A stretch of DNA of 64,000 nt from sequence record NC_106721.1. One strand, 5' to 3'. Each line of letters starts with the position of its first letter. The stretch's first letter is position 1. Position numbers and translations under genes: made by a program. The notes under the pieces are model-generated. The model was not told the DNA's origin. It saw only the letters and a program-made list of their open reading frames with translations, and searched no databases. This document shows positions 4,327 through 44,926 of this stretch, one piece after another. Source of the stretch: Escherichia phage EC148.

Positions 4327-4355
4327 ATTATATTAGAAATTTAGCTTCATAGCAA
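4327..4355 (-). promoter_or_regulatory. sigma70-type promoter (minus) driving the tRNA-Ser / tRNA-CAU cluster
   Basis: -35 TTGCTA / 17 nt / -10 TATAAT on minus strand, directly upstream of the tRNA at 4223-4311. Confidence 0.6.
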
Positions 4356-4851
4356 GAAAATTTTTCAAGTTTTCGGTAGACATCTCATCCACATCTACGG
4401 GAGAAACAAAGCCGTTTAATTTTCTAGCAAATTTTTCACCCGCAGGATCGTTGTCTCCGACAGCTACCAATTTAAAAGGTAATAATTTCAGTTGCTTTAA
4501 TAACGCTTTTCCTGGAGAAGAACCTAACATTGCCAGGGCTGGATAACCAGCGTTATGTAGCGCAACTGCCTTAAATACAGATTCAGCGATCAATACTACT
4601 TTTTCATCTCCATTGAGAGTTTCTAGTCCCCATACACACTGGGTAGTAGAATAAGTAAAATATTTAGCTTCAAAGGGACACTTACCATGACCTTTTGGAG
4701 CAGAAGGATTATACGTCTGATAGCCTCGCAACATCCCGGAGAAGTCATACAACGGGACTGTTAGCCATCCTTCCGGACTTAACCAGCAATGATATTTATC
4801 TGTATCAAATCCTCTGGATAAGAGGTGCTGTGTTAGCTCATCAACATTCAT
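4333..4851 (-). CDS. Toprim-domain protein (DnaG-like catalytic core, no zinc finger)
   Basis: Conserved Glu in VVLIAESVF and DxD in LVAVGDNDPAGEKFARKL; start set at MNVDEL because the promoter at 4882-4910 lies inside the longer ORF. Confidence 0.55.
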   Translation of the reverse strand: MNVDELTQHLLSRGFDTDKYHCWLSPEGWLTVPLYDFSGMLRGYQTYNPSAPKGHGKCPFEAKYFTYSTTQCVWGLETLNGDEKVVLIAESVFKAVALHNAGYPALAMLGSSPGKALLKQLKLLPFKLVAVGDNDPAGEKFARKLNGFVSPVDVDEMSTENLKNFLAMKLNF

Positions 4852-4881
4852 ATTTGGTTCCTCTCTCAAATTTATAGATAT

Positions 4882-4910
4882 ATTATACAGAGAATTTAGC
4901 ATTCAAGCAA
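4882..4910 (-). promoter_or_regulatory. sigma70-type promoter (minus) for the Toprim-protein gene
   Basis: -35 TTGCTT / 17 nt / -10 TATAAT on minus strand. Confidence 0.55.
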
Positions 4911-5025
4911 TCAAATTTTTTAACTTTTTAGAGGAAAATCATAGGGCACTTAAGGGTAGCAGATAAGTGGGGAGGACCAAAATTTGTGACCCCACTAAAA
5001 ATCCGGGGGCAATTTTTAAAGACCC

Positions 5026-5054
5026 CTTGACATTTTCGCTGGGGTAGTGTAAAG
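5026..5054 (+). promoter_or_regulatory. sigma70-type promoter for the plus-strand three-gene cassette
   Basis: -35 TTGACA (5026-5031), 17-nt spacer, -10 TAAAGT (5049-5054). Confidence 0.55.
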
Positions 5055-5117
5055 TATATGTTATGGATGAGTGATCAAAGAGACACACATTTTCTATATA
5101 CTAGGAGGTGTCAAAAT

Positions 5118-6107
5118 ATGACAGAAGAAGTAGCTAAGAGTCCTGAGACCGTCGCTAGCGTTGCAGCAGAACTGCACAGTCACGAGGAATCAGATAAGAA
5201 AAAGTGGGAGAAGGTCAGAGCCTACGAAGAAAAACATCGTGAACACGATGATGAAGAAGAAGATGACGATGATGAACATTGTCATAAATATGGAAAACAT
5301 AAAATGCAAGAACCAGTAAACGTATTCACTAGTGGCTTCCCTGGCCTACTGGGTGGTTACCCAGCAAACGCAGGTGCTTTCGGTGGTGAAGGTATGGGAC
5401 TATTCGGAGCTATCCTAATCGGTGCTCTATTAACCGGCGGATTCGGTGGTTTCGGTGGATTCGGTGGACGTGGTGTAGTTGGTGAAGGTACCGCAGTTGA
5501 TGCAGTACTTCAGAACCAAGATACCGCTAGTATTCTAGCAGCTATCAACACTACTCGTACAGAGGCTAACCAGGGTACTGGAGCTGTTTTAAGCGCAGTT
5601 AACAATGGTTTTAGCCAGACAACCCAAAACCAGAGCCGTGATACTCAGTCTGTACTAACTACGATCTACGGTACAGGTGCTAATCTGTCTAATCAGATCT
5701 GCCAGGAAACTCGCAACGTTATTCAGGGTCAGTTCGATCTTTCTCGCCAGATTGATCAATCTTTCGCAGCTAACCAGATAGCTCGTGCACAAGATAAGTT
5801 TGATTCTGCACAGATCGCTTTCCAGCAGACTTTACAAACTAATAACCAGTTTGCCGCTGTTCAGGCTCAGATGTGTGCTAACCAGAACTCTCTGGAACGT
5901 CAGATCGCTGAATGTTGCTGTGAACTTCAGACTGCGATCGCTGGTGTAACTACTGCGCGTATCCAGGATGAGTTAGACGCATGTCGCCTACGTGAAGCAA
6001 TCGCTGCGGGTAGCGGTGCTAACGGTCAGGTAATTAATCAAATCGCTTTAAGTCTTGGTGCTATCACTCAGACTCTGGCTGGTCTGCAGGCTAAACTGCC
6101 GGCTTAA
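5118..6107 (+). CDS. hypothetical low-complexity protein: polyacidic N-terminus, Gly-zipper hydrophobic segment, Gln/Asn/Thr-rich C-terminal region with Cys cluster
   Basis: Strong RBS TAGGAGGTG before ATG 5118; promoter at 5026-5054; translation-optimised codon choice; no recognisable catalytic motif. Confidence 0.6.
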   Translation: MTEEVAKSPETVASVAAELHSHEESDKKKWEKVRAYEEKHREHDDEEEDDDDEHCHKYGKHKMQEPVNVFTSGFPGLLGGYPANAGAFGGEGMGLFGAILIGALLTGGFGGFGGFGGRGVVGEGTAVDAVLQNQDTASILAAINTTRTEANQGTGAVLSAVNNGFSQTTQNQSRDTQSVLTTIYGTGANLSNQICQETRNVIQGQFDLSRQIDQSFAANQIARAQDKFDSAQIAFQQTLQTNNQFAAVQAQMCANQNSLERQIAECCCELQTAIAGVTTARIQDELDACRLREAIAAGSGANGQVINQIALSLGAITQTLAGLQAKLPA

Positions 6108-6128
6108 TATTAAGGGGAGGAGCCCATT

Positions 6129-6545
6129 ATGAGTAAATATGGTTTTGTAAATAACGGACTTAATCAAAGTATGGGCTCCCAGCAGCCCATTCCGGGTCTG
6201 GATAACCCCTACTTACAACAGTTGCAACAGCGTTTAGCAGAAGCGCAACAGATGCAGCAACAACTCCAGCAAAACCCTGGAAGTGTGAGTCCTATGCAAA
6301 TGATGCAGCAAATGAGCGGGCAGTCGCAAATGCCTCAACAAATGCAGCAACAGGTGCCTCAGCAGCAAGTTCAGCAACAAACCCAACAACCGCAGGTTTC
6401 TGCGGAAGGACAGGCAGTACTAGCCCTTTTCGAAGACTTCGCAAAGACAGAGGATGGGAAACAGCTTGTATCACTTATGGGTAAGTTTAATAGCTTCTGC
6501 CAAAGCCAAGTTGCAAAAGCTCAAAATGGGGGTAGTAACTCCTAA
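6129..6545 (+). CDS. hypothetical Gln-rich protein, 138 aa
   Basis: RBS AAGGGGAGG; Q-rich repeats (PQQMQQQ...). Confidence 0.6.
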   Translation: MSKYGFVNNGLNQSMGSQQPIPGLDNPYLQQLQQRLAEAQQMQQQLQQNPGSVSPMQMMQQMSGQSQMPQQMQQQVPQQQVQQQTQQPQVSAEGQAVLALFEDFAKTEDGKQLVSLMGKFNSFCQSQVAKAQNGGSNS

Positions 6546-6554
6546 GGAGGAAAT

Positions 6555-6749
6555 ATGTGTTGCAGAAAATCTGTTTCGTGCTGCCCAGTGCCTGTAGCAC
6601 GTTGTTGCTCTCCAGCAATGTTTACGCAAATACCGGCGTTCAATCCCTTTGCCTTTAAGCCTACTCTTATCCTGCCCCCTAGAGTAGATTTTCAGTCAAG
6701 ATTGGCCTCCCGTATGGGTGGTTGCTGTACACCGAGAGTATGGTTCTAA
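6555..6749 (+). CDS. hypothetical Cys-rich small protein, 64 aa
   Basis: RBS AAGGAGG; 8 Cys including CC pairs; followed by terminator hairpins. Confidence 0.55.
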   Translation: MCCRKSVSCCPVPVARCCSPAMFTQIPAFNPFAFKPTLILPPRVDFQSRLASRMGGCCTPRVWF

Positions 6750-6761
6750 ACCAAAAACAAA

Positions 6762-6795
6762 AGCCCCTGCCGAAAGGTAAGGGGCTTTTTCTTTT
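6762..6795 (+). terminator. rho-independent terminator ending the plus-strand cassette
   Basis: AGCCCCT...AGGGGCT hairpin followed by TTTTTCTTTT. Confidence 0.65.
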
Positions 6796-6799
6796 GCCT

Positions 6800-6840
6800 T
6801 AAATACAGAAAAGCCCGCGCTCTCGTAGGAAACGCGGGCT
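6800..6840 (-). terminator. rho-independent terminator for the SPFH gene (convergent with the previous one)
   Basis: GCCCGCG...CGCGGGC hairpin followed on minus strand by TTTTCTGTATTT. Confidence 0.6.
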
Positions 6841-6864
6841 TGGTTCGAAGATTACGTGTAACTA

Positions 6865-30511: not shown

Positions 30512-31216
30512 ATGGCTGGTTCTCGTAGAAAGAAACATATCCATGAAATCCCGGATGAAGTCTTTAAAAAGGTTATAGAGCATCTGGAGAACGGTGGTAC
30601 CAAGAAAGCAGCATGTGAAATGCTCGGCGTATCATCCAATCCAACTATGGAAAGGATGATTGAAGAATGGCAAGACCGCCAGATTCAAGTGGCTGAAATG
30701 AAGAAAAAGAAACGTGGCACACTCATTGAAGGCATTGAGTTAGCTAACGTTATTGAACAGTATTTGTCTGGTGATTCTTTTGAAGAAATTGCCGATCGTA
30801 ATTACCGCTCTGTAGCAATGGTTAAATCTGTTCTGGAACGATATGGTGCTCTGCTTCGTTTGAATGATATTGTAGATCCATTGAATCCTCCAATTATTCC
30901 TGATGATGCTGTAGCAGAAGAATTTGCAGTTGGTGAGCTTGTTTGGGTTCCTGGATACCAGTGTATCGGTGAAATCAAAAAAGCAATGGATAACCCTGTT
31001 GGTTGTTACCGTGTATGGCTTCTATCAGAAGGCAAACAACAGAACGTTCATTATATGAATTACGAGCTGGCTTCTGTTAAACATCTGGAAAAGTTAGGGG
31101 TAGACGTAAAATCTCTAGGATATAAGTGGACTCGTGAAGAAATTATTACGTTGATTAACGAAGCTGTTAAGGCTGCCCTGAAACTTGATAAAGAAAAAGG
31201 AAAACGCCGTGAGTAA
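30512..31216 (+). CDS. putative HTH DNA-binding protein
   Basis: N-terminal helix-turn-helix-like segment GGTKKAACEMLGVSSNPT; promoter 30452-30480; RBS GAGAGGAG. Confidence 0.5.
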   Translation: MAGSRRKKHIHEIPDEVFKKVIEHLENGGTKKAACEMLGVSSNPTMERMIEEWQDRQIQVAEMKKKKRGTLIEGIELANVIEQYLSGDSFEEIADRNYRSVAMVKSVLERYGALLRLNDIVDPLNPPIIPDDAVAEEFAVGELVWVPGYQCIGEIKKAMDNPVGCYRVWLLSEGKQQNVHYMNYELASVKHLEKLGVDVKSLGYKWTREEIITLINEAVKAALKLDKEKGKRRE

Positions 31217-31460
31217 GCTAACAGATTTGCTTAAAGATGGGGAAGTAAAAACTCTATATCGTAGAAGCTGGGATAATGACAATAATGGCTTAGTGTTACT
31301 AACTTTAGACGCTGACTCAGATGTAGTTACCCAACATACCTGGGTAGCTGGTAATTATCCCTATAGTGAGGTTGTTACGTTAACAGTATGCGAAGCTATT
31401 GCTGACGATTGGGAGATTGCCAGCATTGATGATATGCTTGCTGTTGGCCTGGTGGAGTAA
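31185..31460 (+). CDS. hypothetical protein
   Basis: ORF overlapping the end of the previous gene; start uncertain. Confidence 0.35.
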   Translation: MIKKKENAVSKLTDLLKDGEVKTLYRRSWDNDNNGLVLLTLDADSDVVTQHTWVAGNYPYSEVVTLTVCEAIADDWEIASIDDMLAVGLVE

Positions 31461-31477
31461 CTACAGAAAAATTTCAG

Positions 31478-31506
31478 TTGCTTAATCCTATAATTCTTGA
31501 TATAAT
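31478..31506 (+). promoter_or_regulatory. sigma70-type promoter (plus)
   Basis: -35 TTGCTT / 17 nt / -10 TATAAT. Confidence 0.6.
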
Positions 31507-31563
31507 ATTCTCATAGTTTGAAAGAACTATTCTGTTTAATTCTTAATTAAGGAAATATAAAAT

Positions 31564-31974
31564 ATGACTACTCCAACTCAGTGGACTGATGAACTGTTCG
31601 AAAAAATGTCTTCCGAATACGTTGCTCGTATGGAGCAATTCCCAGAGGATGAACGTCCGGGTGTTAGCATGGAAATTGTTAGCGAAATTGCTCAGGAAAA
31701 TGGTGTAACTCCGAACGGTTTTCGTATGAAGTTGACCAAAGCAGGTGTATATATCAAGAAAGCTGCTGGCTCTGCTTCTAAATCTAGTGCATCTACTGGA
31801 GAAAAAGCTTCTGGTGGTTCTCGCACTTCCAAAGCCCAAGCTCATGCCGATCTTCGTTCAGCATTCTCTGATGCTGGCCTAGCACCAGATTTTCTGGATG
31901 ATGCAATTATCGACAAACTGACCGGTAAAGCGGCTGCTCATCTGGCAGAAGCAATCCGAGCTATCACTAAGTAA
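31564..31974 (+). CDS. hypothetical protein, translation-optimised codons
   Basis: Promoter 31478-31506; strong host-like codon bias. Confidence 0.5.
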   Translation: MTTPTQWTDELFEKMSSEYVARMEQFPEDERPGVSMEIVSEIAQENGVTPNGFRMKLTKAGVYIKKAAGSASKSSASTGEKASGGSRTSKAQAHADLRSAFSDAGLAPDFLDDAIIDKLTGKAAAHLAEAIRAITK

Positions 31975-32010
31975 TTTTTAGATAAATCCACCAACAAAAG
32001 GAACACAGTT

Positions 32011-32307
32011 ATGACCAAAGCTGAAATTATCGCACAATGTGAAAAATTTGGTGAGTTTTATCTTCATTACGAGAAACTTCGTCAGAAAGGAACCACGTAC
32101 CTTCAGGGTACGATGGAATTTGATCCAGCCCAAGATAAATATCTGGCTGAGCGTATTAAACGTGAACGTATTCGTAAAGCGAAAGATGATGAGATCCTTG
32201 TCTTCTCTCGTACTAATGATAGCTTCCGTTTTATTCCTGTCGAGAAAGTCCGTCGTGTGACTAGCCTCCAATCAGAGTTAGATCGTGCTTCTCCAGTAGG
32301 CCGATAA
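32011..32307 (+). CDS. hypothetical protein
   Basis: ORF followed by terminator 32318-32342. Confidence 0.45.
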   Translation: MTKAEIIAQCEKFGEFYLHYEKLRQKGTTYLQGTMEFDPAQDKYLAERIKRERIRKAKDDEILVFSRTNDSFRFIPVEKVRRVTSLQSELDRASPVGR

Positions 32308-32317
32308 GAAACCAATT

Positions 32318-32342
32318 AGCCCCTATATGGGGCTTTTTGTGT
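32318..32342 (+). terminator. rho-independent terminator (plus)
   Basis: AGCCCCTATATGGGGCT hairpin followed by TTTTTG. Confidence 0.65.
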
Positions 32343-32357
32343 ATTTGGGATATGTAA

Positions 32358-32666
32358 ATGAGCGAACAGGTAAATCAAAACTATGAAGGACACGTTGATG
32401 ACCAGTCCATCATACTTTGGGAGAAGGAGGGGGAACAAGTAAGATTAACAGTATCTGAATTTCGTGGGAATCTATACATGGGTATTCGTTACTGGCTTCT
32501 TGATATTAATGATGAATGGTTTCCAACGAAATCTGGCTTCTCTTTTCCTTACACCCTAGAAACAACATCACAGCTTTTCTATGCGTTTACACAGATTCTT
32601 AGCGAATCTGAGGTTTTACATGAAGTACAGAAACGAGCTGAAGAACTCAAAGCCAAGAATGCCTAG
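32358..32666 (+). CDS. hypothetical protein
   Basis: ORF followed by hairpin GCCAAGAA...TTCTTGGC. Confidence 0.45.
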   Translation: MSEQVNQNYEGHVDDQSIILWEKEGEQVRLTVSEFRGNLYMGIRYWLLDINDEWFPTKSGFSFPYTLETTSQLFYAFTQILSESEVLHEVQKRAEELKAKNA

Positions 32667-32693
32667 TTCTTGGCTTTTTCTTTATAAATGTAT

Positions 32694-32722
32694 TTGCTTT
32701 CAACTCAGTTTTGTTATATAAT
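32694..32722 (+). promoter_or_regulatory. sigma70-type promoter (plus)
   Basis: -35 TTGCTT / 17 nt / -10 TATAAT. Confidence 0.6.
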
Positions 32723-32752
32723 ATTTATATAAATTAATGAGAGGGTTGCAAA

Positions 32753-33025
32753 GTGAAAAAGATAAGTATAAGTACACTTAAACCTTTCCCGTACATCGGA
32801 CAGCCTCTTATACTTATGTGGGAGGGGAAGATTAATGGAGAAAAGTATACTAAAACTAGAAGTGGGTATAAGCTGATTTCACTTCATTACGAAAAAGAAG
32901 TATTAGTAGCTGAAATATACTCTCCGTTGTCAGATAGGCTAGTAAAAACTACATATTTGCATCTTTGCAAAAATTATACATGGCACGGATCCACTAGACA
33001 ACCCACATACTATGAGGCAGAATAA
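32753..33025 (+). CDS. hypothetical protein
   Basis: ORF downstream of promoter 32694-32722. Confidence 0.45.
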   Translation: MKKISISTLKPFPYIGQPLILMWEGKINGEKYTKTRSGYKLISLHYEKEVLVAEIYSPLSDRLVKTTYLHLCKNYTWHGSTRQPTYYEAE

Positions 33026-33997
33026 ATGACCAATGTAAAAGACTTTATTAAACGTTGCCAAGAAGCATATTATCAAGGTATGTCTTTAATCTCTGATGAA
33101 GAGTATGATTGCCTGGTAAAACGCTTTCCGTTAGAAGAAGAGATCGGACCTAAGGGCGATATTCCACATCTGTATCGTATGTATTCTTTACAGAAAGTTT
33201 ATTATAATCGTGGAGATAAACCTCCGTTTAACCCGTTAGGTCAAGTAGAAACTGATAAGTTAGATGGTTGTGCAATTTCTCTGTTATATATTAATGGCGA
33301 ATTTGTTCAAGCACTAACTCGTGGTAATGGTATTCTAGGGAATGATGTCACAAGCAACGTAAGATTGCTGAATATCCCTAAAAAGATTTCCCAAAAAGTA
33401 CCTACTCAAATCACTGGTGAAGTTCTAATTACAAAAGAAGTAGAAAATAAACGTAACTTTGCCTCTGGTGCTATTAACCTCAAAGATAGTGATGATTTTG
33501 TACAACGTATCGGAGAAGGTGGTTTAATCTTCGTTGCATATGGTATCCAGTGTTCTGCTGAATCTGTAGGTATTACAGAAGCATATTTAAAAGATATGCT
33601 TTGGCTGGAGAATGAGAACTTCTTAACAGTTGTTAATGTGCGTTCCTTCTTTAAATGGATTCCGACGGATGGTAAAGTTGTTCGTATTAATGACAACAAC
33701 AAATTCTTCCGTGAAGGCTGGACTAATAAATTCCCTCGTGGAGCATTCGCTATTAAAGAGGATGAAGAAGGCGAGGTTACAACTCTTACTAAAGTTGAAT
33801 GGCAGGTAGGGGCTTCTGGTAAAGTAACTCCAGTTGGTTATTTCGAACCGGTAATTATTGATGATGCTACAATTGTTAAAGCGACTCTTAATAACGTTGA
33901 TTATATTAACTCTCTTGATCTAGAGATCGGTTGCCAGATTCGAGTGATTCGTGCTGGTGGTGTAATCCCGTGCATAGTAGAGCGAGTATACGAGTAA
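33026..33997 (+). CDS. NAD-dependent DNA ligase, adenylation-domain subunit
   Basis: KxDG active-site motif (TDKLDGCAIS) and LigA-type nucleotidyltransferase/OB region. Confidence 0.8.
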   Translation: MTNVKDFIKRCQEAYYQGMSLISDEEYDCLVKRFPLEEEIGPKGDIPHLYRMYSLQKVYYNRGDKPPFNPLGQVETDKLDGCAISLLYINGEFVQALTRGNGILGNDVTSNVRLLNIPKKISQKVPTQITGEVLITKEVENKRNFASGAINLKDSDDFVQRIGEGGLIFVAYGIQCSAESVGITEAYLKDMLWLENENFLTVVNVRSFFKWIPTDGKVVRINDNNKFFREGWTNKFPRGAFAIKEDEEGEVTTLTKVEWQVGASGKVTPVGYFEPVIIDDATIVKATLNNVDYINSLDLEIGCQIRVIRAGGVIPCIVERVYE

Positions 33998-34140
33998 TAC
34001 ATAACCCTTTGCTACCCATCTACCATATCGGAATTATAAAGTGGTTATTGACATTTTCGCCGCTTAGGTATATACTAGTATCATTCAGTTGAGGGATAGA
34101 AAGTTATGGCGAGGGTAAGCAAAGTTAGTTAAAATTGTAG

Positions 34141-34169
34141 TTGCTAAATGCTTAAATACTTGCTATAAT
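34141..34169 (+). promoter_or_regulatory. sigma70-type promoter (plus) between the two ligase genes
   Basis: -35 TTGCTA / 17 nt / -10 TATAAT. Confidence 0.6.
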
Positions 34170-34196
34170 ATTTATATAAATTGATAAGGAAGAAAT

Positions 34197-34970
34197 TTGA
34201 TGAAAATCGAAATTCCAACACAATGTCCCTCTTGTGGTTCTAAGCTAGATCTTGTCAACGGACAATTATTTTGTCGGAATAAGTCCAACTGTCCAGCGCA
34301 ATCAAGTAAGTTAATTGAGAACTTCTGTACAAAAATGAAGTTAAAGGGTTTTGGTCCAAAAACTATTGAGAAGCTGGAGCTGACGAAGATTTCAGAACTA
34401 TTTTACCTAACCGAAGAAGATTTGGTTAGAGCCGTGGGTAGCAAGGTTGCCGCTAAGTTAATTAGCGAATTAAATACTAAAGTTCGCGGAGACATTGACT
34501 TTGGTTCAGTTCTCGGTTCTTTAGGAATCCCTCTAATTGGAGAGGTTGCAGCAAAGAAATTATCCCAAAATTGCACTAGCTTCCACGATGTGAAGGCTGA
34601 CGGCAAGGCTGGAGAAAATTATAAAGCCTGGCTAAATTCCCCACAAGGCAAGGATGTTATCGAATTACCGTGGAAATTCTCAACTGGTGCTAAAGCTAAA
34701 ACCGTCGTTACTGATGATTTAGTTGCCCAGCCAAATGGAATCGCGGTATGTATTACCGGATCTTTGCAAGACTTTGCAAATCGAACGGATGCAACAAACT
34801 ATTTAGAAGGTCTAGGATATACGGTTAAGAAATCTGTTACCAAAGACGTCAAATACCTAATCTGTGAGGATGAATCGAAGCGTTCTTCCTCATCTTATAA
34901 GAAAGCCGAAACGAATGGGATAGAAATCCTGTCGATTAAAGAACTATTGGAGAAAAATAATAATGTCTAA
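34197..34970 (+). CDS. NAD-dependent DNA ligase, zinc-finger/HhH/BRCT subunit
   Basis: CPSCGS...C...C zinc finger, HhH-like segment, C-terminal BRCT-like region; separated from the adenylation gene by a promoter-containing spacer. Confidence 0.75.
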   Translation: MMKIEIPTQCPSCGSKLDLVNGQLFCRNKSNCPAQSSKLIENFCTKMKLKGFGPKTIEKLELTKISELFYLTEEDLVRAVGSKVAAKLISELNTKVRGDIDFGSVLGSLGIPLIGEVAAKKLSQNCTSFHDVKADGKAGENYKAWLNSPQGKDVIELPWKFSTGAKAKTVVTDDLVAQPNGIAVCITGSLQDFANRTDATNYLEGLGYTVKKSVTKDVKYLICEDESKRSSSSYKKAETNGIEILSIKELLEKNNNV

Positions 34971-35730
34971 ACTGAACTGGAACGTAGAAGGTGTAACCGA
35001 GTCTCTGAAAGCAAAAGCCACTGCTCTGGGTGTTTCTGTAATCTCTCAAGAACAAGTAGCCGCTATCGCCGCTGAACTGGCTGCTGAAACTGGCAAAGAT
35101 GTTACCGCCCGCTCTGTTGGCTCTAAACTGCGTAAAGAAGGTTTTGAAGTACAGAAAGCTAACGAAGTACAGAAATCCCCGTGGACTCCTGAGCAGGAAG
35201 CTGAACTGGTTGATTTCCTGAACGCTCATGCTGGTCAGTATACCTATGCTGAAATCGCTGCTGCTGTAGCTGGTGGTCAGTTCGGTGCTAAGCAGGTACA
35301 GGGTAAGATTCTGAGCCTGGAAATGACCGCTTCTGTTAAACCAACTGAAAAAGCTGCTGCTGTTCGTTCCTTTACTCCGGATGAAGAAACTGATTTTGTT
35401 AATCAGGTTGTTGCTGGTGCTACTATTGAAGCTATCGCTGCTCACTTCGGTCGCAATATTAAGCAGATCCGTGGTAAAGCTCTGAGTCTGCTTCGTGAAG
35501 GTCGTATCGCTGCTATGCCGGTACAGGAAACCTCAAGTGCTAAAACTCGTGAAGATCTGTTAGAAGGTCTGGATCTGGTTAACATGACTGTTGCTGAGAT
35601 CGCTGAGAAAACTGGTAAATCTGAGCGCGGTGTTAAATCTATGCTGTCTCGTCGTGGTCTGGTTGCTAAGGACTATGATGGTGCCGCTAAGCGTGCTAAA
35701 CTGGATGCAAAAGCTGCGGCTGCTGAATAA
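34963..35730 (+). CDS. hypothetical protein with three tandem HTH-like repeats, translation-optimised codons
   Basis: Repeats YAEIAAAV.../IEAIAAHFGRNIKQIRGKALSL/VAEIAEKTGKSERGVKSMLS; followed by strong terminator. Confidence 0.55.
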   Translation: MSKLNWNVEGVTESLKAKATALGVSVISQEQVAAIAAELAAETGKDVTARSVGSKLRKEGFEVQKANEVQKSPWTPEQEAELVDFLNAHAGQYTYAEIAAAVAGGQFGAKQVQGKILSLEMTASVKPTEKAAAVRSFTPDEETDFVNQVVAGATIEAIAAHFGRNIKQIRGKALSLLREGRIAAMPVQETSSAKTREDLLEGLDLVNMTVAEIAEKTGKSERGVKSMLSRRGLVAKDYDGAAKRAKLDAKAAAAE

Positions 35731-35747
35731 TCTGGTAAATTAAACCT

Positions 35748-35781
35748 AAGGGGAGGGGGCTATGCTCCTTCCCCTTTTTGC
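35748..35781 (+). terminator. rho-independent terminator after the HTH-repeat gene
   Basis: AAGGGGAGGG...CCTTCCCCTT hairpin followed by TTTTTG. Confidence 0.65.
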
Positions 35782-35812
35782 ATTTAGAAGGCACGAAAGC
35801 GTGCAAAGGAGA

Positions 35813-37285
35813 ATGACCTTGTTTAACGTGCAAGCTGTAGTGTTGAAGATGCTTCTAGCTTCCGAACAGAAGCAAATAGCATTGGAAACATTCTCAAAAC
35901 TGCATAAAGATCATTTTAATGACGCTTTCTCCTCAATTTACCAAGCCGTCCAGAATTATTATAAAAAATATAACACAATGCCGTCCATTGACGCACTTAT
36001 GCTTGAAGCTAATAGGAACGCCCGCCTTTCTCAAGCCCTAGTCGTCTTAGCTAACACTCAAATTCCAGAAGTGAGCATGGAACAGGCACTTGAAGTCCTA
36101 GAGGCCGAGTATACACAGGATTTATTCCTGAAGCTTCTAGAAACAGACGTGCTTCAAGATTTAACAATGCTGGATCAGGGAGAAATTCTCAACCGAGTTG
36201 CCTCCCTTCACTTAAAATTAGAAGAGAAAGTAACGAATACTGGAAAAGTATTCAACGCAGATAACATGCGTATTTTCCAGAGAGAAGAAGATACCAAACT
36301 GAACTTAATCGCTCTTGGTATTTGTAATGAGTTCGATGCTCAAATTGGTTTAGCTCGCACAGAAACGTTACTGCTTGGTGGTTGGCGTGGTACTGGTAAA
36401 TCCATTATCTGTTCAAACATACAGGTTCAGCAATATTTGAATGGAGATATTGCTCCATACTTCTCAATTGAGATGAAAGAACATGAAGTATTTAGACGTA
36501 ATCTAGCCATGTTAGCCGGGGTATCAGCACTAGCAATGCGTAATAATACTCTAGAAGGTGCAGCTCTATTGAGATTAGCCAGAACTAGAGCTAGAATGTT
36601 CAACGGGGGTGAAGAGCTTTTCGATAACTTCGTTAAACAGTATACAATGGCTAAGATGAGTGATTTCTACGATATGGAGAGTAAGCTAATAGAGGGGTAT
36701 GAACTACATACTCCTATGATTATCGTTTATGACCCTGAACTGTCCATTACAACAGTTGACGTAGAATTAAATAAATTAGTTGCTAGATATGGTGATAAAG
36801 TTACAGTAGCTTTACTGGACTATATTAACCAAACCCGACTTCCAGATTCTAAAACCATTGATATGTATGACTGGAAGGAACAGATGGTTGTTAGCTCGTC
36901 TTTCAAATCCATCTGCCAGAAACATAACGTGGCTGGCGTAGCTCCCTACCAGATCGATCAAGATGGTAGAACACGTATGTCAAAGGGGATTCTTGATTCC
37001 GCAGACATGGCTGCTAATCTTAATGCTGCTAAAGCTGATAATGGTCAAGGTGCTATTATGTTTGACTTTGTTAAGACTCGTTCTTCTGATAGCGTGAAGT
37101 TTATGCCTAAAATGAATTGGGAAACTCTGCGAATGGATAATACTACCAACCTAGCAATGGAAGATATATCTCAAATGGAAGCTGAGTTCGTTATCCCTAT
37201 TGAGAAGGATAAGCCGGCTCAACCTAAACGTTCTAAGAAAGACAAAACTGAAAATTCAACAGGTGAACAGGCCAGCGATATATGA
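35813..37285 (+). CDS. putative DnaB-like replicative helicase (RecA-fold ATPase)
   Basis: Walker A GGWRGTGKS; start set at MTLFNV with RBS AAGGAG because the longer ORF overlaps the upstream terminator. Confidence 0.5.
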   Translation: MTLFNVQAVVLKMLLASEQKQIALETFSKLHKDHFNDAFSSIYQAVQNYYKKYNTMPSIDALMLEANRNARLSQALVVLANTQIPEVSMEQALEVLEAEYTQDLFLKLLETDVLQDLTMLDQGEILNRVASLHLKLEEKVTNTGKVFNADNMRIFQREEDTKLNLIALGICNEFDAQIGLARTETLLLGGWRGTGKSIICSNIQVQQYLNGDIAPYFSIEMKEHEVFRRNLAMLAGVSALAMRNNTLEGAALLRLARTRARMFNGGEELFDNFVKQYTMAKMSDFYDMESKLIEGYELHTPMIIVYDPELSITTVDVELNKLVARYGDKVTVALLDYINQTRLPDSKTIDMYDWKEQMVVSSSFKSICQKHNVAGVAPYQIDQDGRTRMSKGILDSADMAANLNAAKADNGQGAIMFDFVKTRSSDSVKFMPKMNWETLRMDNTTNLAMEDISQMEAEFVIPIEKDKPAQPKRSKKDKTENSTGEQASDI

Positions 37286-38172
37286 GTAGAATAACAGAAC
37301 TACTTGATCTGAAAGGCATTGAATATAAAGACACAGGTGGGGACATCCTCATCTGTTGTCTCAATCCAGATCATGACGATAAACACCCAAGTTTGCGTAT
37401 TGATCCTGAAACAGGTATTATGCACTGCTTGAGTTGTGGCTTCGGTAAAGGTATACCGAGCATTTACCATTATTTTAATGAGACTCAGTACCGACAGTCT
37501 CCAAGACTATCGCAGGTACGTAAAAAGATTTCAGAGATTAGGAATGGATCTACAAATCTTGCAATTCCTGAATCTGCTTACCTTTTCGAAGGTGATTTCC
37601 GAGGTATAAGTTCTAAGACCTTGAAGAAATACTTTGCTTTCCAACACCAAGCAGACTGGGAAGGCAGAATTGTATTCCCAATCACAGATGCTGTTGGACG
37701 CAATATCCTATTTTTGGGTCGTTCTATAAACAGTTCTGCCCCTCCTAAATACTTAGTAAAACCAAAACAAGTTTCACCACCGATTTTCCCTGTACGATAT
37801 AATACTCCAGTTCTTATTCTAGTTGAAGGTATCTTTGATATGCTGAACCTAGAGGATAATGGTATAGACTATGCTTCTTGCTGCTTTGGTACACATCAGT
37901 TTACTTCAGATAACATTGCAGATAAGTTTAGCCCTTATATTATTGCTGGTGTAAAAGTTGTTGTTATCTTACTAGATAATGATGCTTCTGGTAATAAAGC
38001 TGCACAAGCGTTGGCCAAGCTAATTCGTACAAAAACGCGTTTAACACCTGTAGTGGCTAACTTTCTTCTACCCGAAGGTAAAGACCCTGGTGACTTAAAT
38101 AAAGAAGAAATTGATATGTTAGCAAAACGTATTGAAATTTTAGTTGCTGAATCGCTTAAAGATTTGGTATAA
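37282..38172 (+). CDS. DNA primase (zinc-finger plus Toprim)
   Basis: CHC2-type zinc finger (CCLNPDHDDKHP...HCLSCG), Toprim Glu (ILVEGIFD) and DxD (LLDNDASG). Confidence 0.8.
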   Translation: MSRITELLDLKGIEYKDTGGDILICCLNPDHDDKHPSLRIDPETGIMHCLSCGFGKGIPSIYHYFNETQYRQSPRLSQVRKKISEIRNGSTNLAIPESAYLFEGDFRGISSKTLKKYFAFQHQADWEGRIVFPITDAVGRNILFLGRSINSSAPPKYLVKPKQVSPPIFPVRYNTPVLILVEGIFDMLNLEDNGIDYASCCFGTHQFTSDNIADKFSPYIIAGVKVVVILLDNDASGNKAAQALAKLIRTKTRLTPVVANFLLPEGKDPGDLNKEEIDMLAKRIEILVAESLKDLV

Positions 38173-38234
38173 TATATTGGTAAGTTAGAGAAGAAACACT
38201 GAAGTTATACTTACTTACCAAGAGGAGATTAAAT

Positions 38235-40802
38235 TTGAAAATCGCAGTAGTTGATAAAGCTCTAAATAACACTCGTTACGATAAACATTTCCAGCTATAC
38301 GGCGAGGAAGTTGATGTATTTCATATGTGTAACGAGAAGTTATCTGGTCGTTTGCTTAAAAAGCACATTACTATTGGAACACCAGAAAATCCATTTGATC
38401 CGAATGATTACGATTTTGTTATACTAGTAGGTGCTGAACCTTTCCTGTATTTCGCAGGTAAGAAAGGCATTGGTGACTATACTGGTAAACGTGTAGAATA
38501 TAATGGATATGCTAACTGGATTGCAAGTATCAGCCCAGCCCAGTTACACTTTAAGCCTGAAATGAAACCAGTTTTCGATGCAACAGTAGAGAATATCCAC
38601 GATATTATCAATGGTCGTGAAAAGATTGCAAAAGCTGGTGATTACCGTCCTATTACTGACCCTGATGAGGCGGAAGAATATATCAAGATGGTGTATAATA
38701 TGGTTATCGGACCTGTCGCATTCGACTCCGAAACCTCAGCACTATACTGTCGAGATGGTTATCTGCTTGGTGTTTCTATATCTCACCAAGAGTATCAGGG
38801 TGTATATATCGATTCTGATTGTCTCACAGAGGTTGCAGTATATTATCTCCAGAAAATTCTGGATAGTGAAAACCACACTATTGTTTTTCACAACTTGAAG
38901 TTTGATATGCACTTTTATAAGTACCATCTGGGACTTACTTTTGATAAAGCACATAAAGAACGCAGGCTCCATGATACAATGTTGCAGCATTATGTTCTAG
39001 ATGAGCGTCGTGGTACTCATGGCTTGAAATCTCTAGCAATGAAGTATACCGATATGGGTGACTATGACTTTGAACTAGATAAGTTCAAAGATGATTACTG
39101 CAAAGCACATAAAATCAAGAAAGAAGATTTCACCTATGATTTAATTCCGTTTGATATTATGTGGCCTTACGCTGCAAAAGATACCGATGCCACCATACGC
39201 TTGCACAACTTCTTCTTACCAAAAATTGAGAAGAATGAAAAACTTTGCAGTCTGTATTATGATGTTCTAATGCCTGGTTGTGTATTTCTCCAGCGTGTTG
39301 AGGATCGTGGTGTACCAATTTCTATTGATCGCTTGAAAGAAGCTCAGTATCAGTTAACTCATAATCTGAATAAAGCTCGTGAGAAACTATATACTTATCC
39401 AGAAGTCGTTCAGCTAGAAAAAGATCAGAATGAAGCGTTTAATCCAAACTCTGTTAAGCAGCTACGTGTTCTTCTGTTTGATTATGTTGGCTTAACTCCA
39501 ACAGGTAAATTGACGGATACTGGAGCAGACTCTACAGATGCAGAAGCTCTGAACGAACTGGCTACGCAGCATCCAATTGCTAAGACTCTACTAGAGATTC
39601 GTAAGCTGACCAAGCTGATCTCTACTTATGTTGAGAAGATTCTTCTGAGTATTGATGCAGATGGTTGCATTCGTACTGGTTTCCACGAACATATGACTAC
39701 TTCTGGTCGTCTGAGTTCTTCTGGTAAACTGAACTTGCAACAGTTACCTCGTGATGAATCTATTATCAAGGGTTGTGTAGTAGCTCCTCCTGGGTATCGT
39801 GTAATCGCATGGGACTTAACAACTGCGGAAGTTTATTATGCTGCTGTTCTATCTGGGGATAGAAATATGCAACAGGTATTTATCAATATGAGAAATGAAC
39901 CTGATAAATACCCGGACTTCCACTCTAACATCGCACACATGGTATTTAAACTCCAATGCGAGCCTCGTGATGTTAAAAAGTTATTCCCAGCTCTGCGTCA
40001 GGCTGCTAAGGCAATTACCTTCGGTATTTTGTATGGTTCTGGCCCAGCTAAAGTAGCTCATTCTGTTAACGAAGCTCTTCTGGAACAGGCTGCTAAGACA
40101 GGAGAACCGTTTGTTGAATGTACTGTTGCGGATGCGAAGGACTATATCGAAACTTACTTCGGTCAGTTCCCACAGCTTAAGCGTTGGATTGATAAGTGCC
40201 ACGATCAGATTAAGAATCATGGATTTATCTATAGTCACTTTGGTCGTAAGCGTCGTCTGCACAATATCCACTCCGAAGACCGTGGTGTTCAGGGTGAAGA
40301 AATTCGTTCTGGATTTAACGCAATCATTCAGTCTGCTTCCTCTGATAGCCTCCTTTTAGGTGCTGTAGATGCAGATAATGAGATCATTTCTCTTGGCCTA
40401 GAACAAGAGATGAAGATTGTTATGCTGGTTCATGACTCCGTGGTTGCTATTGTTCGTGAGGATTTGATCGACCAATACAATGAAATCCTGATTCGTAATA
40501 TTCAGAAAGACCGTGGTATCAGTATTCCTGGCTGTCCGATTGGTATTGATTCAGATTCTGAAGCTGGAGGTTCTCGTGACTATTCTTGTGGTAAGATGAA
40601 GAAACAGCACCCATCAATCGCTTGTATTGATGATGATGAATATACTCGTTATGTCAAGAGTGTATTACTTGATGCAGAGTTCGAGTATAAGAAACTAGCT
40701 GCAATGGATAAAGAGCATCCAGATCATAGCAAATACAAGGATGATAAGTTTATTGCTGTATGTAAAGATTTGGATAACGTAAGAAGGATTCTCGGTGCTT
40801 GA
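38235..40802 (+). CDS. DNA polymerase, family A
   Basis: Motif B KAITFGILYG and motif C LVHDSVV; TTG start after AGGAG; 855 aa, the size recalled for T5 polymerase. Confidence 0.9.
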   Translation: MKIAVVDKALNNTRYDKHFQLYGEEVDVFHMCNEKLSGRLLKKHITIGTPENPFDPNDYDFVILVGAEPFLYFAGKKGIGDYTGKRVEYNGYANWIASISPAQLHFKPEMKPVFDATVENIHDIINGREKIAKAGDYRPITDPDEAEEYIKMVYNMVIGPVAFDSETSALYCRDGYLLGVSISHQEYQGVYIDSDCLTEVAVYYLQKILDSENHTIVFHNLKFDMHFYKYHLGLTFDKAHKERRLHDTMLQHYVLDERRGTHGLKSLAMKYTDMGDYDFELDKFKDDYCKAHKIKKEDFTYDLIPFDIMWPYAAKDTDATIRLHNFFLPKIEKNEKLCSLYYDVLMPGCVFLQRVEDRGVPISIDRLKEAQYQLTHNLNKAREKLYTYPEVVQLEKDQNEAFNPNSVKQLRVLLFDYVGLTPTGKLTDTGADSTDAEALNELATQHPIAKTLLEIRKLTKLISTYVEKILLSIDADGCIRTGFHEHMTTSGRLSSSGKLNLQQLPRDESIIKGCVVAPPGYRVIAWDLTTAEVYYAAVLSGDRNMQQVFINMRNEPDKYPDFHSNIAHMVFKLQCEPRDVKKLFPALRQAAKAITFGILYGSGPAKVAHSVNEALLEQAAKTGEPFVECTVADAKDYIETYFGQFPQLKRWIDKCHDQIKNHGFIYSHFGRKRRLHNIHSEDRGVQGEEIRSGFNAIIQSASSDSLLLGAVDADNEIISLGLEQEMKIVMLVHDSVVAIVREDLIDQYNEILIRNIQKDRGISIPGCPIGIDSDSEAGGSRDYSCGKMKKQHPSIACIDDDEYTRYVKSVLLDAEFEYKKLAAMDKEHPDHSKYKDDKFIAVCKDLDNVRRILGA

Positions 40803-43917: not shown

Positions 43918-43946
43918 AGAGGGGCTTCGGCCCCTTTCTTTTTAAC
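43918..43946 (+). terminator. rho-independent terminator after the SSB-like gene
   Basis: GAGGGGCTTCGGCCCCT hairpin followed by TTCTTTTT. Confidence 0.7.
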
Positions 43947-43948
43947 CA

Positions 43949-44926
43949 ATGAGAATATTATTTAGTGCTGATCATCATATCAAACTAGGACAAGATAAAG
44001 TTCCAAAGGAATGGCAGAAGCGTCGCTTCCTGATGCTAGGAGAACGGTTAAATGATATATTCCATAATCATAACTGTGATCTTCATATTGCTGGTGGTGA
44101 TATACTTGATGTTGCCGACCCGTCGTCAGAAGAAATAGAACTGCTTGAACAGTTCATGTCAAGACTTGACCATCCAGGCAAAATCTTTACTGGAAATCAT
44201 GAAATGTTAACGAAAACCATTTCATGTCTATATCATTATGCAGGAGTTATTAATAAAGTAACGAGTGGTAAGTGGGAAGTAATTACCAAACCATATCGTT
44301 CCCCTGAATTTGATATTGTTCCATATGACGAAATCCATAAATCTAAGTGGAAACCATCTGAATCAAAACTATGTTTCACGCATGTTCGTGGTGAAATCCC
44401 TCCACATGTAAAACCAGAAATTGATCTAACTAAGTACAACTGTTATGATACTGTAATTGCTGGCGATTTACATTCTTATACTAATAGCCAGACTATCGGA
44501 TCTACTAGACTCCTCTACCCAGGGTCTCCATTAACTACATCGTTCCATAGAGAACGCACAAAAGGTACAAATGGTTGCTTTATCGTTGATACCGACACAT
44601 TAAAAGTAGAATGGATTGAACTCGGTGATTTACCACAACTGATTCGTAAAACAATCGGAGCTGGTGAAGAGATGGAACCTAGTGATTATGATCGTGTAGT
44701 CTATGAAGTTACTGGTGACGTTGTTCAATTAAAGTCTATCAAAGACTCTGATTTATTAGATAAGAAGATTAACCATCGAGTTACTAAAGACGCTAAGTTA
44801 AATCTTGTTGATCTTGATATGTTAGGCGAACTTGAACTTTACTTCCGTGAAGTTGAGAAGCTATCTCAAGGCGACATTGATAGAATCTTGGCTAGAGCTG
44901 CGAAATATGTCAAAGATTACAATTAA
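43949..44926 (+). CDS. SbcD/Mre11-like nuclease
   Basis: Calcineurin-like phosphoesterase motifs (ADHH, GGDILD, GNHE). Confidence 0.8.
   Translation: MRILFSADHHIKLGQDKVPKEWQKRRFLMLGERLNDIFHNHNCDLHIAGGDILDVADPSSEEIELLEQFMSRLDHPGKIFTGNHEMLTKTISCLYHYAGVINKVTSGKWEVITKPYRSPEFDIVPYDEIHKSKWKPSESKLCFTHVRGEIPPHVKPEIDLTKYNCYDTVIAGDLHSYTNSQTIGSTRLLYPGSPLTTSFHRERTKGTNGCFIVDTDTLKVEWIELGDLPQLIRKTIGAGEEMEPSDYDRVVYEVTGDVVQLKSIKDSDLLDKKINHRVTKDAKLNLVDLDMLGELELYFREVEKLSQGDIDRILARAAKYVKDYN

Follow-up and report, generated by a model that had tools for sequence, protein, structure and literature searches.

Three consecutive plus-strand genes of Escherichia phage EC148, a T5-like phage, make up a discrete insertion or deletion of about 1.9 kb that is found in about half of T5-like genomes and is dispensable for lytic growth. 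The genes lie at 5118-6107, 6129-6545 and 6555-6749, amid minus-strand genes, of a stretch of 64,000 nucleotides (sequence record NC_106721.1; hereafter the window). Sequence comparison indicates that the trio is horizontally mobile as a unit among at least four unrelated phage groups. The products have 329, 138 and 64 amino acids (aa) and are homologues of T5.077, T5.078 and T5.079, which have been annotated as hypothetical since 2004. We tentatively propose that the cassette is a moron-type accessory operon encoding a three-protein complex at the inner membrane that would serve phage competition and exclusion or counter-defence, a reading to which we give well under an even chance.

As an annotation the cassette is not new. 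The Salmonella phage 5 record of 2004 entered the trio as 'ORF 327aa / 138aa / 64aa' and already marked promoter P12, three ribosome-binding sites and a bidirectional terminator, ter1. The products are hypothetical in every record, and the literature search found no paper that names T5.077-079 in its main text. What is new is the mobility of the unit together with the family and the architecture of gene 1; the open reading frames (ORFs) themselves had been annotated before. The first-pass annotation of the window, made from the letters alone, had described a self-contained cassette, and the ORF coordinates, sequences and motifs that it quoted were all present. The cassette proved even more autonomous than had been claimed, being a discrete indel that moves as a unit between unrelated phages.

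A discrete accessory unit in T5-like and unrelated phages

The 2-kb region is 100% identical to that of Escherichia phages SUT_E420 and T5_ev212 and 97-99% identical to that of many Tequintavirus genomes. A search with the cassette and both flanking genes matched 444 phage records, 210 of which cover at least 80% of the query, and gene 1 was detected in 221 records by protein search. The flanking genes encode a Toprim-domain protein and an SPFH protein. In phage AKFV33 these two genes stand about 95 bp apart with the second hairpin of the locus alone between them, and everything from the promoter through the three genes to the first terminator is missing. A laboratory variant, T5Mos, has been reported in which the loss of 30661-38625 takes out P12 together with codons 1-187 of T5.077 (PMC11464382); these coordinates agree with the T5 record. 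T5Mos grew normally on cells without PARIS (PMC11464382). The viable T5Mos deletion and the many natural isolates without the cassette show that it is dispensable for lytic growth. The transcriptome and proteome literature yielded nothing usable on T5.077-079, and one study based on RNA sequencing used a Bas33 stock with a deletion at the cassette locus.

Morons such as lambda bor and lom, HK97 gp15, T5 llp and T1/phi80 cor are, like the cassette, autonomous units that lie between genes adjacent in sibling phages, deviate in composition, are dispensable and are exchanged. All the features of moron-type genetic organisation that were examined were found here, namely an own promoter and terminator (transcription being predicted), clean absence in relatives, deviating base composition and dispensability. 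Many morons make membrane proteins, and the main product of the cassette probably does likewise. The cassette differs from these morons in its three co-evolving genes, in its mainly virulent carriers and in the absence of homology to characterised moron products.

Outside the T5-like phages the trio was found in Pseudomonas phage KPP23, a siphovirus of 62.8 kb and 56% G+C. Gene 1 of KPP23 has 320 aa and is 60% identical in its C-terminal half, gene 2 has 143 aa (BLASTP E = 5e-22), and gene 3 has 60 aa with an MCC start and four CC doublets; the copy is bracketed by terminators. A 71-kb metagenomic contig with an N4-type virion RNA polymerase, related to the Gamaleyavirus phages of E. coli, carries the trio adjoining genes for tRNA-Asn, tRNA-Gln and tRNA-Tyr (contig locus 4278-4675), and none of the sequenced N4-like phages in GenBank has it. 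The trio of a lambdoid contig occupies the classic cargo position, with the Q antiterminator on one side and the holin, lysozyme and Rz genes on the other, and runs on the opposite strand. A divergent T5-like contig of 114 kb keeps all three genes. The lambdoid copy, used as a query, found no match in complete E. coli genomes, and a scan of viral contigs returned close T5-like loci and nothing else.

Other features were observed at these loci. ORF072 of KPP23 is annotated in the wrong frame, and the T5.079-like frame (MCCNQPVPQCCGP...) begins 2 nt earlier (AB910392 about 43935-44117; locus 6936-7118). The products of ORF072-074 are absent from the mass spectrometry list of the KPP23 virion (PMC4031330). 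Just upstream of the N4-like and lambdoid copies, a divergent minus-strand gene (4756-4911 and 4744-4917 of the respective loci) encodes a double zinc-ribbon protein of 51-57 aa with the pattern RYCPxCG...CPECGxWFTK...CRQRK. This protein is absent from T5 and KPP23 and may be a dedicated regulator that moves with some versions of the unit. The cassette sits in the tRNA cluster in T5 and beside tRNAs in the N4-like contig, where two of the tRNAs read codons of the Gln/Asn-rich cassette proteins. The adjacency to tRNAs may be a coincidence, or tRNA clusters may be insertion hot spots shared by these phages.

Predicted architecture of the three products

Gene 1 (PHROG 8119, function unknown) can be divided into a helix at residues 12-44, an acidic and His-rich linker at 43-62, a Gly-zipper hydrophobic segment at about 92-117 and a helix at 136-325. 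The acidic run DDEEEDDDDEH, the hydrophobic stretch GAILIGALLTGGFGGFGGFGG and the CCC cluster (residues 266-268) are present as first quoted. An AlphaFold2 model of gene 1 built with 22 sequences was unusable, with a predicted local distance difference test score (pLDDT) of 47, and an 87-sequence alignment gave a mean pLDDT of 74.5. The latter model has helix 12-44 with pLDDT above 90, a short helix (96-106) over the hydrophobic core, a disordered acidic/His-rich and glycine-rich stretch (low pLDDT at residues 52-124) and a single unbroken helix at 136-325, about 28 nm long and with pLDDT above 90 at 150-270. Hydrophobicity averaged over the family has a period of 3.67 residues (11/3) along this helix, with a power of 48.4 versus 13.6 +/- 4.3 in shuffles (shuffle maximum 31.9), and the core positions are 7 and 4 residues apart. 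A canonical heptad coiled coil was rejected, as the periodicity of the single sequence is not above shuffles and the signal, seen in the family average alone, is hendecad. The model describes a hendecad, nearly straight rod that must oligomerise, and not low-complexity disorder. What had been taken for a long low-complexity region rich in Gln, Asn and Thr is accordingly better described as a conserved alpha-helix, predicted to span ~190 residues with an 11-residue repeat. Every member of the close family keeps the CCC cluster, as do 72 of 87 in the wider family.

The charges around the hydrophobic segment bear on the topology of gene 1. The first charge before the segment is Asp or Glu in 74 of the 87 family members and the first charge after it is Arg or Lys in 68 of the 87, and the best-matching short forms have no Lys or Arg in their N-terminal tails of 6-25 residues. 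Under the positive-inside rule this charge bias indicates that gene 1 is probably N-out/C-in, with the rod and its CCC cluster in the cytoplasm. A cytoplasmic rod fits genes 2 and 3, which have no export signals yet have conserved cysteines. It also fits the occurrence of the family in phages of anaerobic Firmicutes, where exported proteins would seldom contain Cys. Judged by its sequence, gene 1 is probably membrane-associated.

Gene 1 has 26 close homologues, and its profile matched 173 clusters at E <= 0.001 among 1.84 billion representative proteins. PHROGs 8119, 9288 and 16490, all of unknown function, were the only families matched, and no Pfam family was among them. Most members of the family have 220-290 aa, lack the N-terminal domain and open with the glycine-rich hydrophobic segment; NFTTLSSINGLGRD, NQNALQQLNSFN, ECCCEIK and DGxATRALIN are common motifs. 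The long form, with the N-terminal domain, was not found in a search of 100,044 bacterial genomes, each representing a species. Short forms occur in the cultured phages Edwardsiella phage eiAU (gp08), Klebsiella phage RCIP0096 and Aeromonas phage phiWae15. In eiAU, gp08 comes immediately behind the tail genes, and a His-rich protein is next. That protein, gp09 (locus 5496-5861; 121 aa; HHGAPVSEHHHYYHP...HPKHHDSH), echoes the His- and acid-rich domain that the T5-type long forms of gene 1 carry fused at the N-terminus.

Seven loci with members of the gene 1 family were found in metagenome-assembled genomes (MAGs) of Bacilli, Clostridia, Lachnospiraceae, Gastranaerophilales, Flavobacterium and Proteobacteria. 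A Gln/Pro-rich protein adjoins the family member in five of the seven (Bacilli, Clostridia, Lachnospiraceae and both Gastranaerophilales), upstream in four loci and downstream in the Lachnospiraceae contig. Four of these neighbours have an 'NPYL' N-terminus like that of gene 2, a weak similarity (pairwise E = 0.005). Several gut and rumen MAG relatives of gene 1 have a tail rich in Cys, Tyr, Gly and Pro (GCGCGCV, NPYCGYG) or are followed by a small protein starting with MCNC. These similarities hint, and do not prove, that gene 3 may be the counterpart of a tail fused to the rod protein elsewhere and that the three-part system may predate the T5-type cassette.

Gene 2 (PHROG 7894, function unknown; 116 homologues) contains 27.5% Gln. 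It has a conserved N-terminal helix (LQQLQQRLAEAQQMQQQL), a Pro/Gln linker and a conserved C-terminal module (ALFEDFAKTEDGKQLV..GKFNSFCQS), and C124 is invariant in an alignment from five phage backgrounds. The length of the linker varies from about 10 to 45 residues across lineages; as read from the alignment, the pattern is that of a flexible tether and not of a conserved prion-like domain. Gene 3 encodes a basic peptide rich in Pro and aromatic residues, with 8 Cys, an MCC start, four CC doublets and an FNPF motif. Its homologues were found in KPP23 and in the N4-like, lambdoid and divergent T5-like loci, and all copies are basic (K+R 5-8 versus D+E 0-1) and Pro/aromatic-rich. Across lineages gene 3 has 2-4 CC doublets and about 8-13% Cys with abundant aromatics; the lambdoid copy starts with MSCNC, and CxC motifs occur in the lambdoid and MAG relatives. 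The conserved Cys in all three products suggest a shared metal site or disulphides.

All three genes are truly coding, with homologues of each in other phage lineages. The T5-like copies of gene 3 are 89-100% identical, also that of phage STG2, where gene 1 is down to 73%, and the ratio of nonsynonymous to synonymous divergence (pN/pS) of gene 3 versus STG2 is 0.17. The start of gene 3 is set by an in-frame stop 9 nt upstream and by the AAGGAGG ribosome site. Conservation, pN/pS and the cross-lineage homologues rule out gene 3 as a gene-calling artefact. The fraction of E. coli optimal codons (Fop) is 0.70 in gene 1, among the top 4 of 60 ORFs, and 0.48 and 0.47 in genes 2 and 3, with a window mean of 0.51. 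The strong codon optimisation claimed for the whole cassette thus holds for gene 1, and genes 2 and 3 are average. Gene 1 is probably highly expressed. The G+C content of the cassette is 47-48% versus 39% in the window, and that of gene 1 may be raised in part by codon optimisation and by Gly/Ala content. Elsewhere in the window, a plus-strand ORF of 255 aa at 34963-35730 (47% G+C) has by far the highest codon optimisation, with a Fop of 0.82.

Searches of Pfam, NCBIfam, PADLOC and PDB sequences with the three proteins returned no catalytic or virion motif and nothing credible, in agreement with the first-pass annotation, and no homology to any characterised protein was found across these searches. 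Matches to RIFIN (E 0.007-0.7) are compositional. In PADLOC no defence family reached E <= 1 for any cassette protein. Foldseek with the better gene 1 model gave no match at E <= 0.001, the best being vimentin rods at E of about 3, and a fold search is uninformative for a single long helix. In a HMMER profile search of PDB all 60 listed top matches were influenza haemagglutinin, almost all of them HA2 (best E = 3e-4), and the HA2 fusion peptide opens with the same six residues, GLFGAI, that occur in gene 1. Homology to HA2 was nevertheless rejected, as hhalign gave a probability of 1% with 6 columns aligned and the posterior accuracy in HMMER was low; the likeness is one of layout and composition. 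The H protein of phage phiX174 has an N-terminal glycine-zipper segment, a long Gln/Asn-rich helix of mixed 7/11 periodicity and about 330 aa. It differs from gene 1 in being a virion protein with no Cys cluster and no partner genes. Homology to H was rejected as well (hhalign 0.6%; no H in the PDB profile searches; ORF072-074 missing from the KPP23 virion). The keratins, keratin-associated proteins and proteins of the cornified envelope offer a compositional analogy only. Gene 1 combines a GGFGG 'glycine-loop' with a Cys-bearing helical rod, the high-sulphur keratin-associated proteins have CCxPx pentads as in gene 3, and gene 2 would correspond to a Gln-rich partner. This would be convergence at most, and keratin-like disulphide cross-linking is not expected in the reducing bacterial cytoplasm.

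Signals and neighbours of the locus

Promoter P12 is predicted on the plus strand at 5027-5055 (TTGACA at 5027-5032, a 17-nt spacer, TAAAGT at 5050-5055, then ATATG), one base off the 5026-5054 first proposed. It matches the consensus at 10 of 12 positions, is the sole consensus hit in 4800-7000 and is an annotated promoter in the T5 and Salmonella phage 5 records. T5 early promoters have been reported to carry ATATT after the -10 element (PMC7472727). Direct reading confirmed strong plus-strand ribosome sites for the three genes, at 5103-5108 (AGGAGG), 6114-6122 (GGGGAGGAG) and 6544-6550 (AAGGAGG, 5 nt upstream of the ATG). Apart from the trio, all credible ORFs from 1 to 21.4 kb of the window are on the minus strand, as is the T5 tRNA cluster, and in the 30-45 kb region of T5 the trio is again alone on the plus strand, so that the opposite orientation to its neighbours was borne out. 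The next plus-strand gene is about 15 kb to the right, and the window edge is 5 kb to the left.

Two hairpins lie 3' of gene 3, one for each converging transcript, which confirms the convergent terminators that had been described. Terminator 1 (about 6759-6796) is a bidirectional, GC-rich hairpin in the RNA fold, placed between an A-run and a T-run, that closes the cassette; in T5 it is annotated as an 'efficient bidirectional rho-independent terminator'. Terminator 2 (6811-6841, minus strand; 12 pairs then a T-run in the terminator scan) serves the convergent SPFH gene. The 101-nt stretch that holds both hairpins folds at -41 kcal/mol (z = -4.25). Because terminator 2 is retained in phages without the cassette, such as AKFV33, it lies outside the mobile unit and marks its right-hand boundary. 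Terminator 2 also holds GCGC, the consensus of the T5 single-strand nicks. In the T5 record the major nick (32.6%) is 75 nt past the T5.079 stop, so the right boundary of the cassette abuts a major nick site that is kept in phages without it.

To the left, and divergent from the cassette, is the homologue of T5.076 (4333-4902, minus strand), a Toprim-domain 'primase-like' protein. To the right, and convergent on it, is T5.080 (6865-7812, minus strand), a flotillin/HflK-like SPFH/Band-7 protein (Pfam E = 2e-17) that is annotated as a 'lipoprotein' and is kept in phages without the cassette. Counter-defence has been reported for several genes of this region. ORF75 of phage SP15, the T5.076 orthologue, rescues phage from retrons Eco2 and Eco7 (PMC11555353), and the T5 tRNA-Lys counters PARIS (PMC11464382). 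Both tRNA-Tyr and ORF75/T5.076 were found to counter retrons in the Azam study.

Possible roles and significance

In the mechanism that we propose, host RNA polymerase would read the autonomous unit from its own sigma-70-type promoter, outside the essential programme of the phage. Gene 1 would be anchored by its glycine-zipper segment and would form a straight, oligomerising alpha-helical rod of ~28 nm with an 11-residue repeat, the charge bias placing rod and CCC on the cytoplasmic side of the membrane. Genes 2 and 3 would be cytoplasmic too, since they have conserved cysteines and no export signals. Gene 3 would probably cap the C-terminus of the rod, judging by distant relatives in which the rod protein itself carries such a tail of Cys, Pro and aromatic residues. 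Gene 2 would act as an adaptor whose two modules are joined by a flexible Pro/Gln tether. The complex would probably be joined by a shared thiolate-metal site or by disulfides. Its speculative role would be to alter the membrane of the infected cell to the benefit of the phage in the wild. An accessory, early and abundant membrane complex is suggested by the moron architecture, the patchy distribution, the spread among phages that share hosts, the dispensability in the laboratory, the probable anchoring and the position in a counter-defence island. The likeliest role, itself put forward with reserve, is to exclude or compete with other phages, and counter-defence comes second. The superinfection-exclusion proteins T4 Imm and Sp, T5 Llp, Cor and HK97 gp15 have no sequence similarity to the cassette proteins and share context alone with them, being early, membrane-located, dispensable and patchy.

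Several points weigh against this proposal. No known superinfection-exclusion, defence or anti-defence family was matched. The hydrophobic core of gene 1 is short (11-15 strongly hydrophobic residues) and glycine-rich and may not span the membrane. The N-terminal domain of the long forms (60-95 residues) has 11 Lys/Arg and would be hard to export, so the N-out/C-in orientation is secure for the short forms only. Gene 3 is linked to the fused tails by composition and motifs, with no significant alignment. A genome-wide knock-down by CRISPRi-ART scored the three genes, annotated there as 'unknown function', as 'Not Fit' (PMC11879866), which speaks for dispensability, but the screen is insensitive, with endolysin and primase also 'Not Fit', and adds little. 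Lastly, very high expression of a long structural rod would fit a scaffold equally well. In a bolder version of the proposal the trio would be the long form of an ancient and so far unrecognised system of three components (the anchored hendecad rod with its CCC, the adaptor on a Pro/Gln tether and the Cys-rich cap), found in phages of Proteobacteria, Melainabacteria and Firmicutes. Its 28-nm rods would build a new kind of structure on the inner face of the membrane, for example a palisade or tube linked by thiolate-metal sites, and provide a new mechanism of phage-phage exclusion or of organisation of the infected cell; we regard this version as improbable.

Among the alternatives, a dedicated counter-defence module is unlikely, if the most probable of them. 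Here the complex would neutralise host immunity or a membrane-acting abortive-infection effector, for example by sequestration at the membrane. The cassette does lie within an accessory island of demonstrated counter-defence parts (tRNA-Lys, tRNA-Tyr and T5.076), has an early-type promoter, is dispensable in defence-free laboratory strains and has the patchy distribution and horizontal exchange that such a module would have. However, the rescue in the Azam study mapped to ORF75 and tRNA-Tyr and not to the cassette, the proteins resemble no known anti-defence protein, most of which are small soluble binders and not three-gene membrane assemblies, and the eiAU-type relatives stand after tail genes, outside any anti-defence island. 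A membrane-tethered scaffold for the internal organisation of the infection, in which abundant rods reaching about 28 nm out from the inner membrane hold phage DNA, RNA or the replication machinery there via the basic, Cys-rich gene 3, is slightly less probable. Such a role would accord with the codon optimisation of gene 1, which is among the highest in the window and suggests a stoichiometric structural part, with the long oligomerising rod, the net charge of +5 to +7 on gene 3, the tether-like linker of gene 2 and the early-type promoter. The early, abundant and non-essential proteins p16.7 and p1 of phi29, which organise the replication of phage DNA at the membrane in this manner, combine a membrane anchor at the N-terminus with a helical region that oligomerises, and p16.7, like the cassette, is non-essential yet conserved. 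They are much smaller than gene 1, have a defined DNA-binding domain and no partners, and bear no sequence relationship to the cassette, in which no nucleic-acid-binding fold was detected. The cassette is missing from half of T5-like phages, moreover, and its carriers have very different replication strategies.

A lysis-related envelope factor, which would either regulate when lysis occurs or help to disrupt or fuse membranes, is decidedly unlikely. The layout of gene 1, with a glycine-rich hydrophobic segment, then long helices and a cysteine cluster, recalls spanins and class I fusion proteins (HA2, HIV gp41); gene 3 as a small Pro/Cys-rich partner recalls Rz1, and a 28-nm rod is about as long as the periplasm is wide. 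Some family members also lie near lysis genes, at loci L024 (VanY peptidase), L032 (holin, lysozyme and Rz), L036 and L037. Yet T5, KPP23 and eiAU-183 have been listed with canonical two-component spanins elsewhere in their genomes (PMC6139136), eiAU having an annotated Rz-like spanin at 30.7 kb. Gene 3, which starts with MCCRKS right after an in-frame stop and ribosome site, has no hydrophobic leader, no lipobox and hence no lipoprotein signal, and the spanin reading was rejected on these grounds. The repeat of gene 1 is hendecad and not heptad, the promoter is of early and not late type, the charge bias favours a cytoplasmic rod, genes 2 and 3 have no signal peptides, and the profile-profile comparison with HA2 failed, as described above. 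Metal or redox handling is more doubtful still. The His- and acid-rich N-terminal domain, the CCC cluster and a metallothionein-like gene 3 would bind Zn, Cu, Ni or reactive species; in favour are the His runs such as HHYHHHHHEHYEEDDEDDEEDEHEHHH in the N-terminal domain of some T5-like variants, the His-rich N-termini of other family members (P0162, P0174), the separate His-rich neighbour in eiAU and the CC, CxC and CGCGC motifs in partners and tails. Gene 3, however, has a modest Cys content (12%) and is rich in aromatics, unlike metallothioneins; metal sites could be merely structural, and buffering gives no rationale for a 28-nm rod. Least probable of all, and very unlikely, is a condensate-forming host-takeover module, one of the roles first listed for the cassette. 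The GLFG/GGFGG segment and the low pLDDT of residues 52-124 in gene 1, together with the Gln content of gene 2, would suit it, but in gene 1 the region rich in Gln and Asn is predicted with confidence to be a conserved helix of ordered periodicity, which weakens the idea for that gene. The Gln-rich part of gene 2 is a variable linker between conserved modules, as is typical of a tether, and the charges on either side of the Gly/Phe segment are conserved, as they would be around a membrane anchor. Nothing supports the bacteriocin-like factor that had also been listed.

The cassette is an unusually well-defined piece of phage 'dark matter', of interest although its mechanism is not yet surprising. 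T5 has long served as a model phage, and T5-like phages find wide use in biocontrol and therapy. The trio has stood as 'hypothetical' for twenty years across hundreds of genomes and is now a defined, testable unit, for which isogenic pairs exist in wild-type T5 and T5Mos and natural knock-outs in AKFV33-type phages. The gene 1 family is large, unannotated and present in phages of several bacterial phyla. Structural and cell biologists would take an interest in the cassette if it forms a new type of rod assembly attached to the membrane, and if it serves competition or counter-defence, it would bear on the design of phage cocktails and on the prediction of host range.

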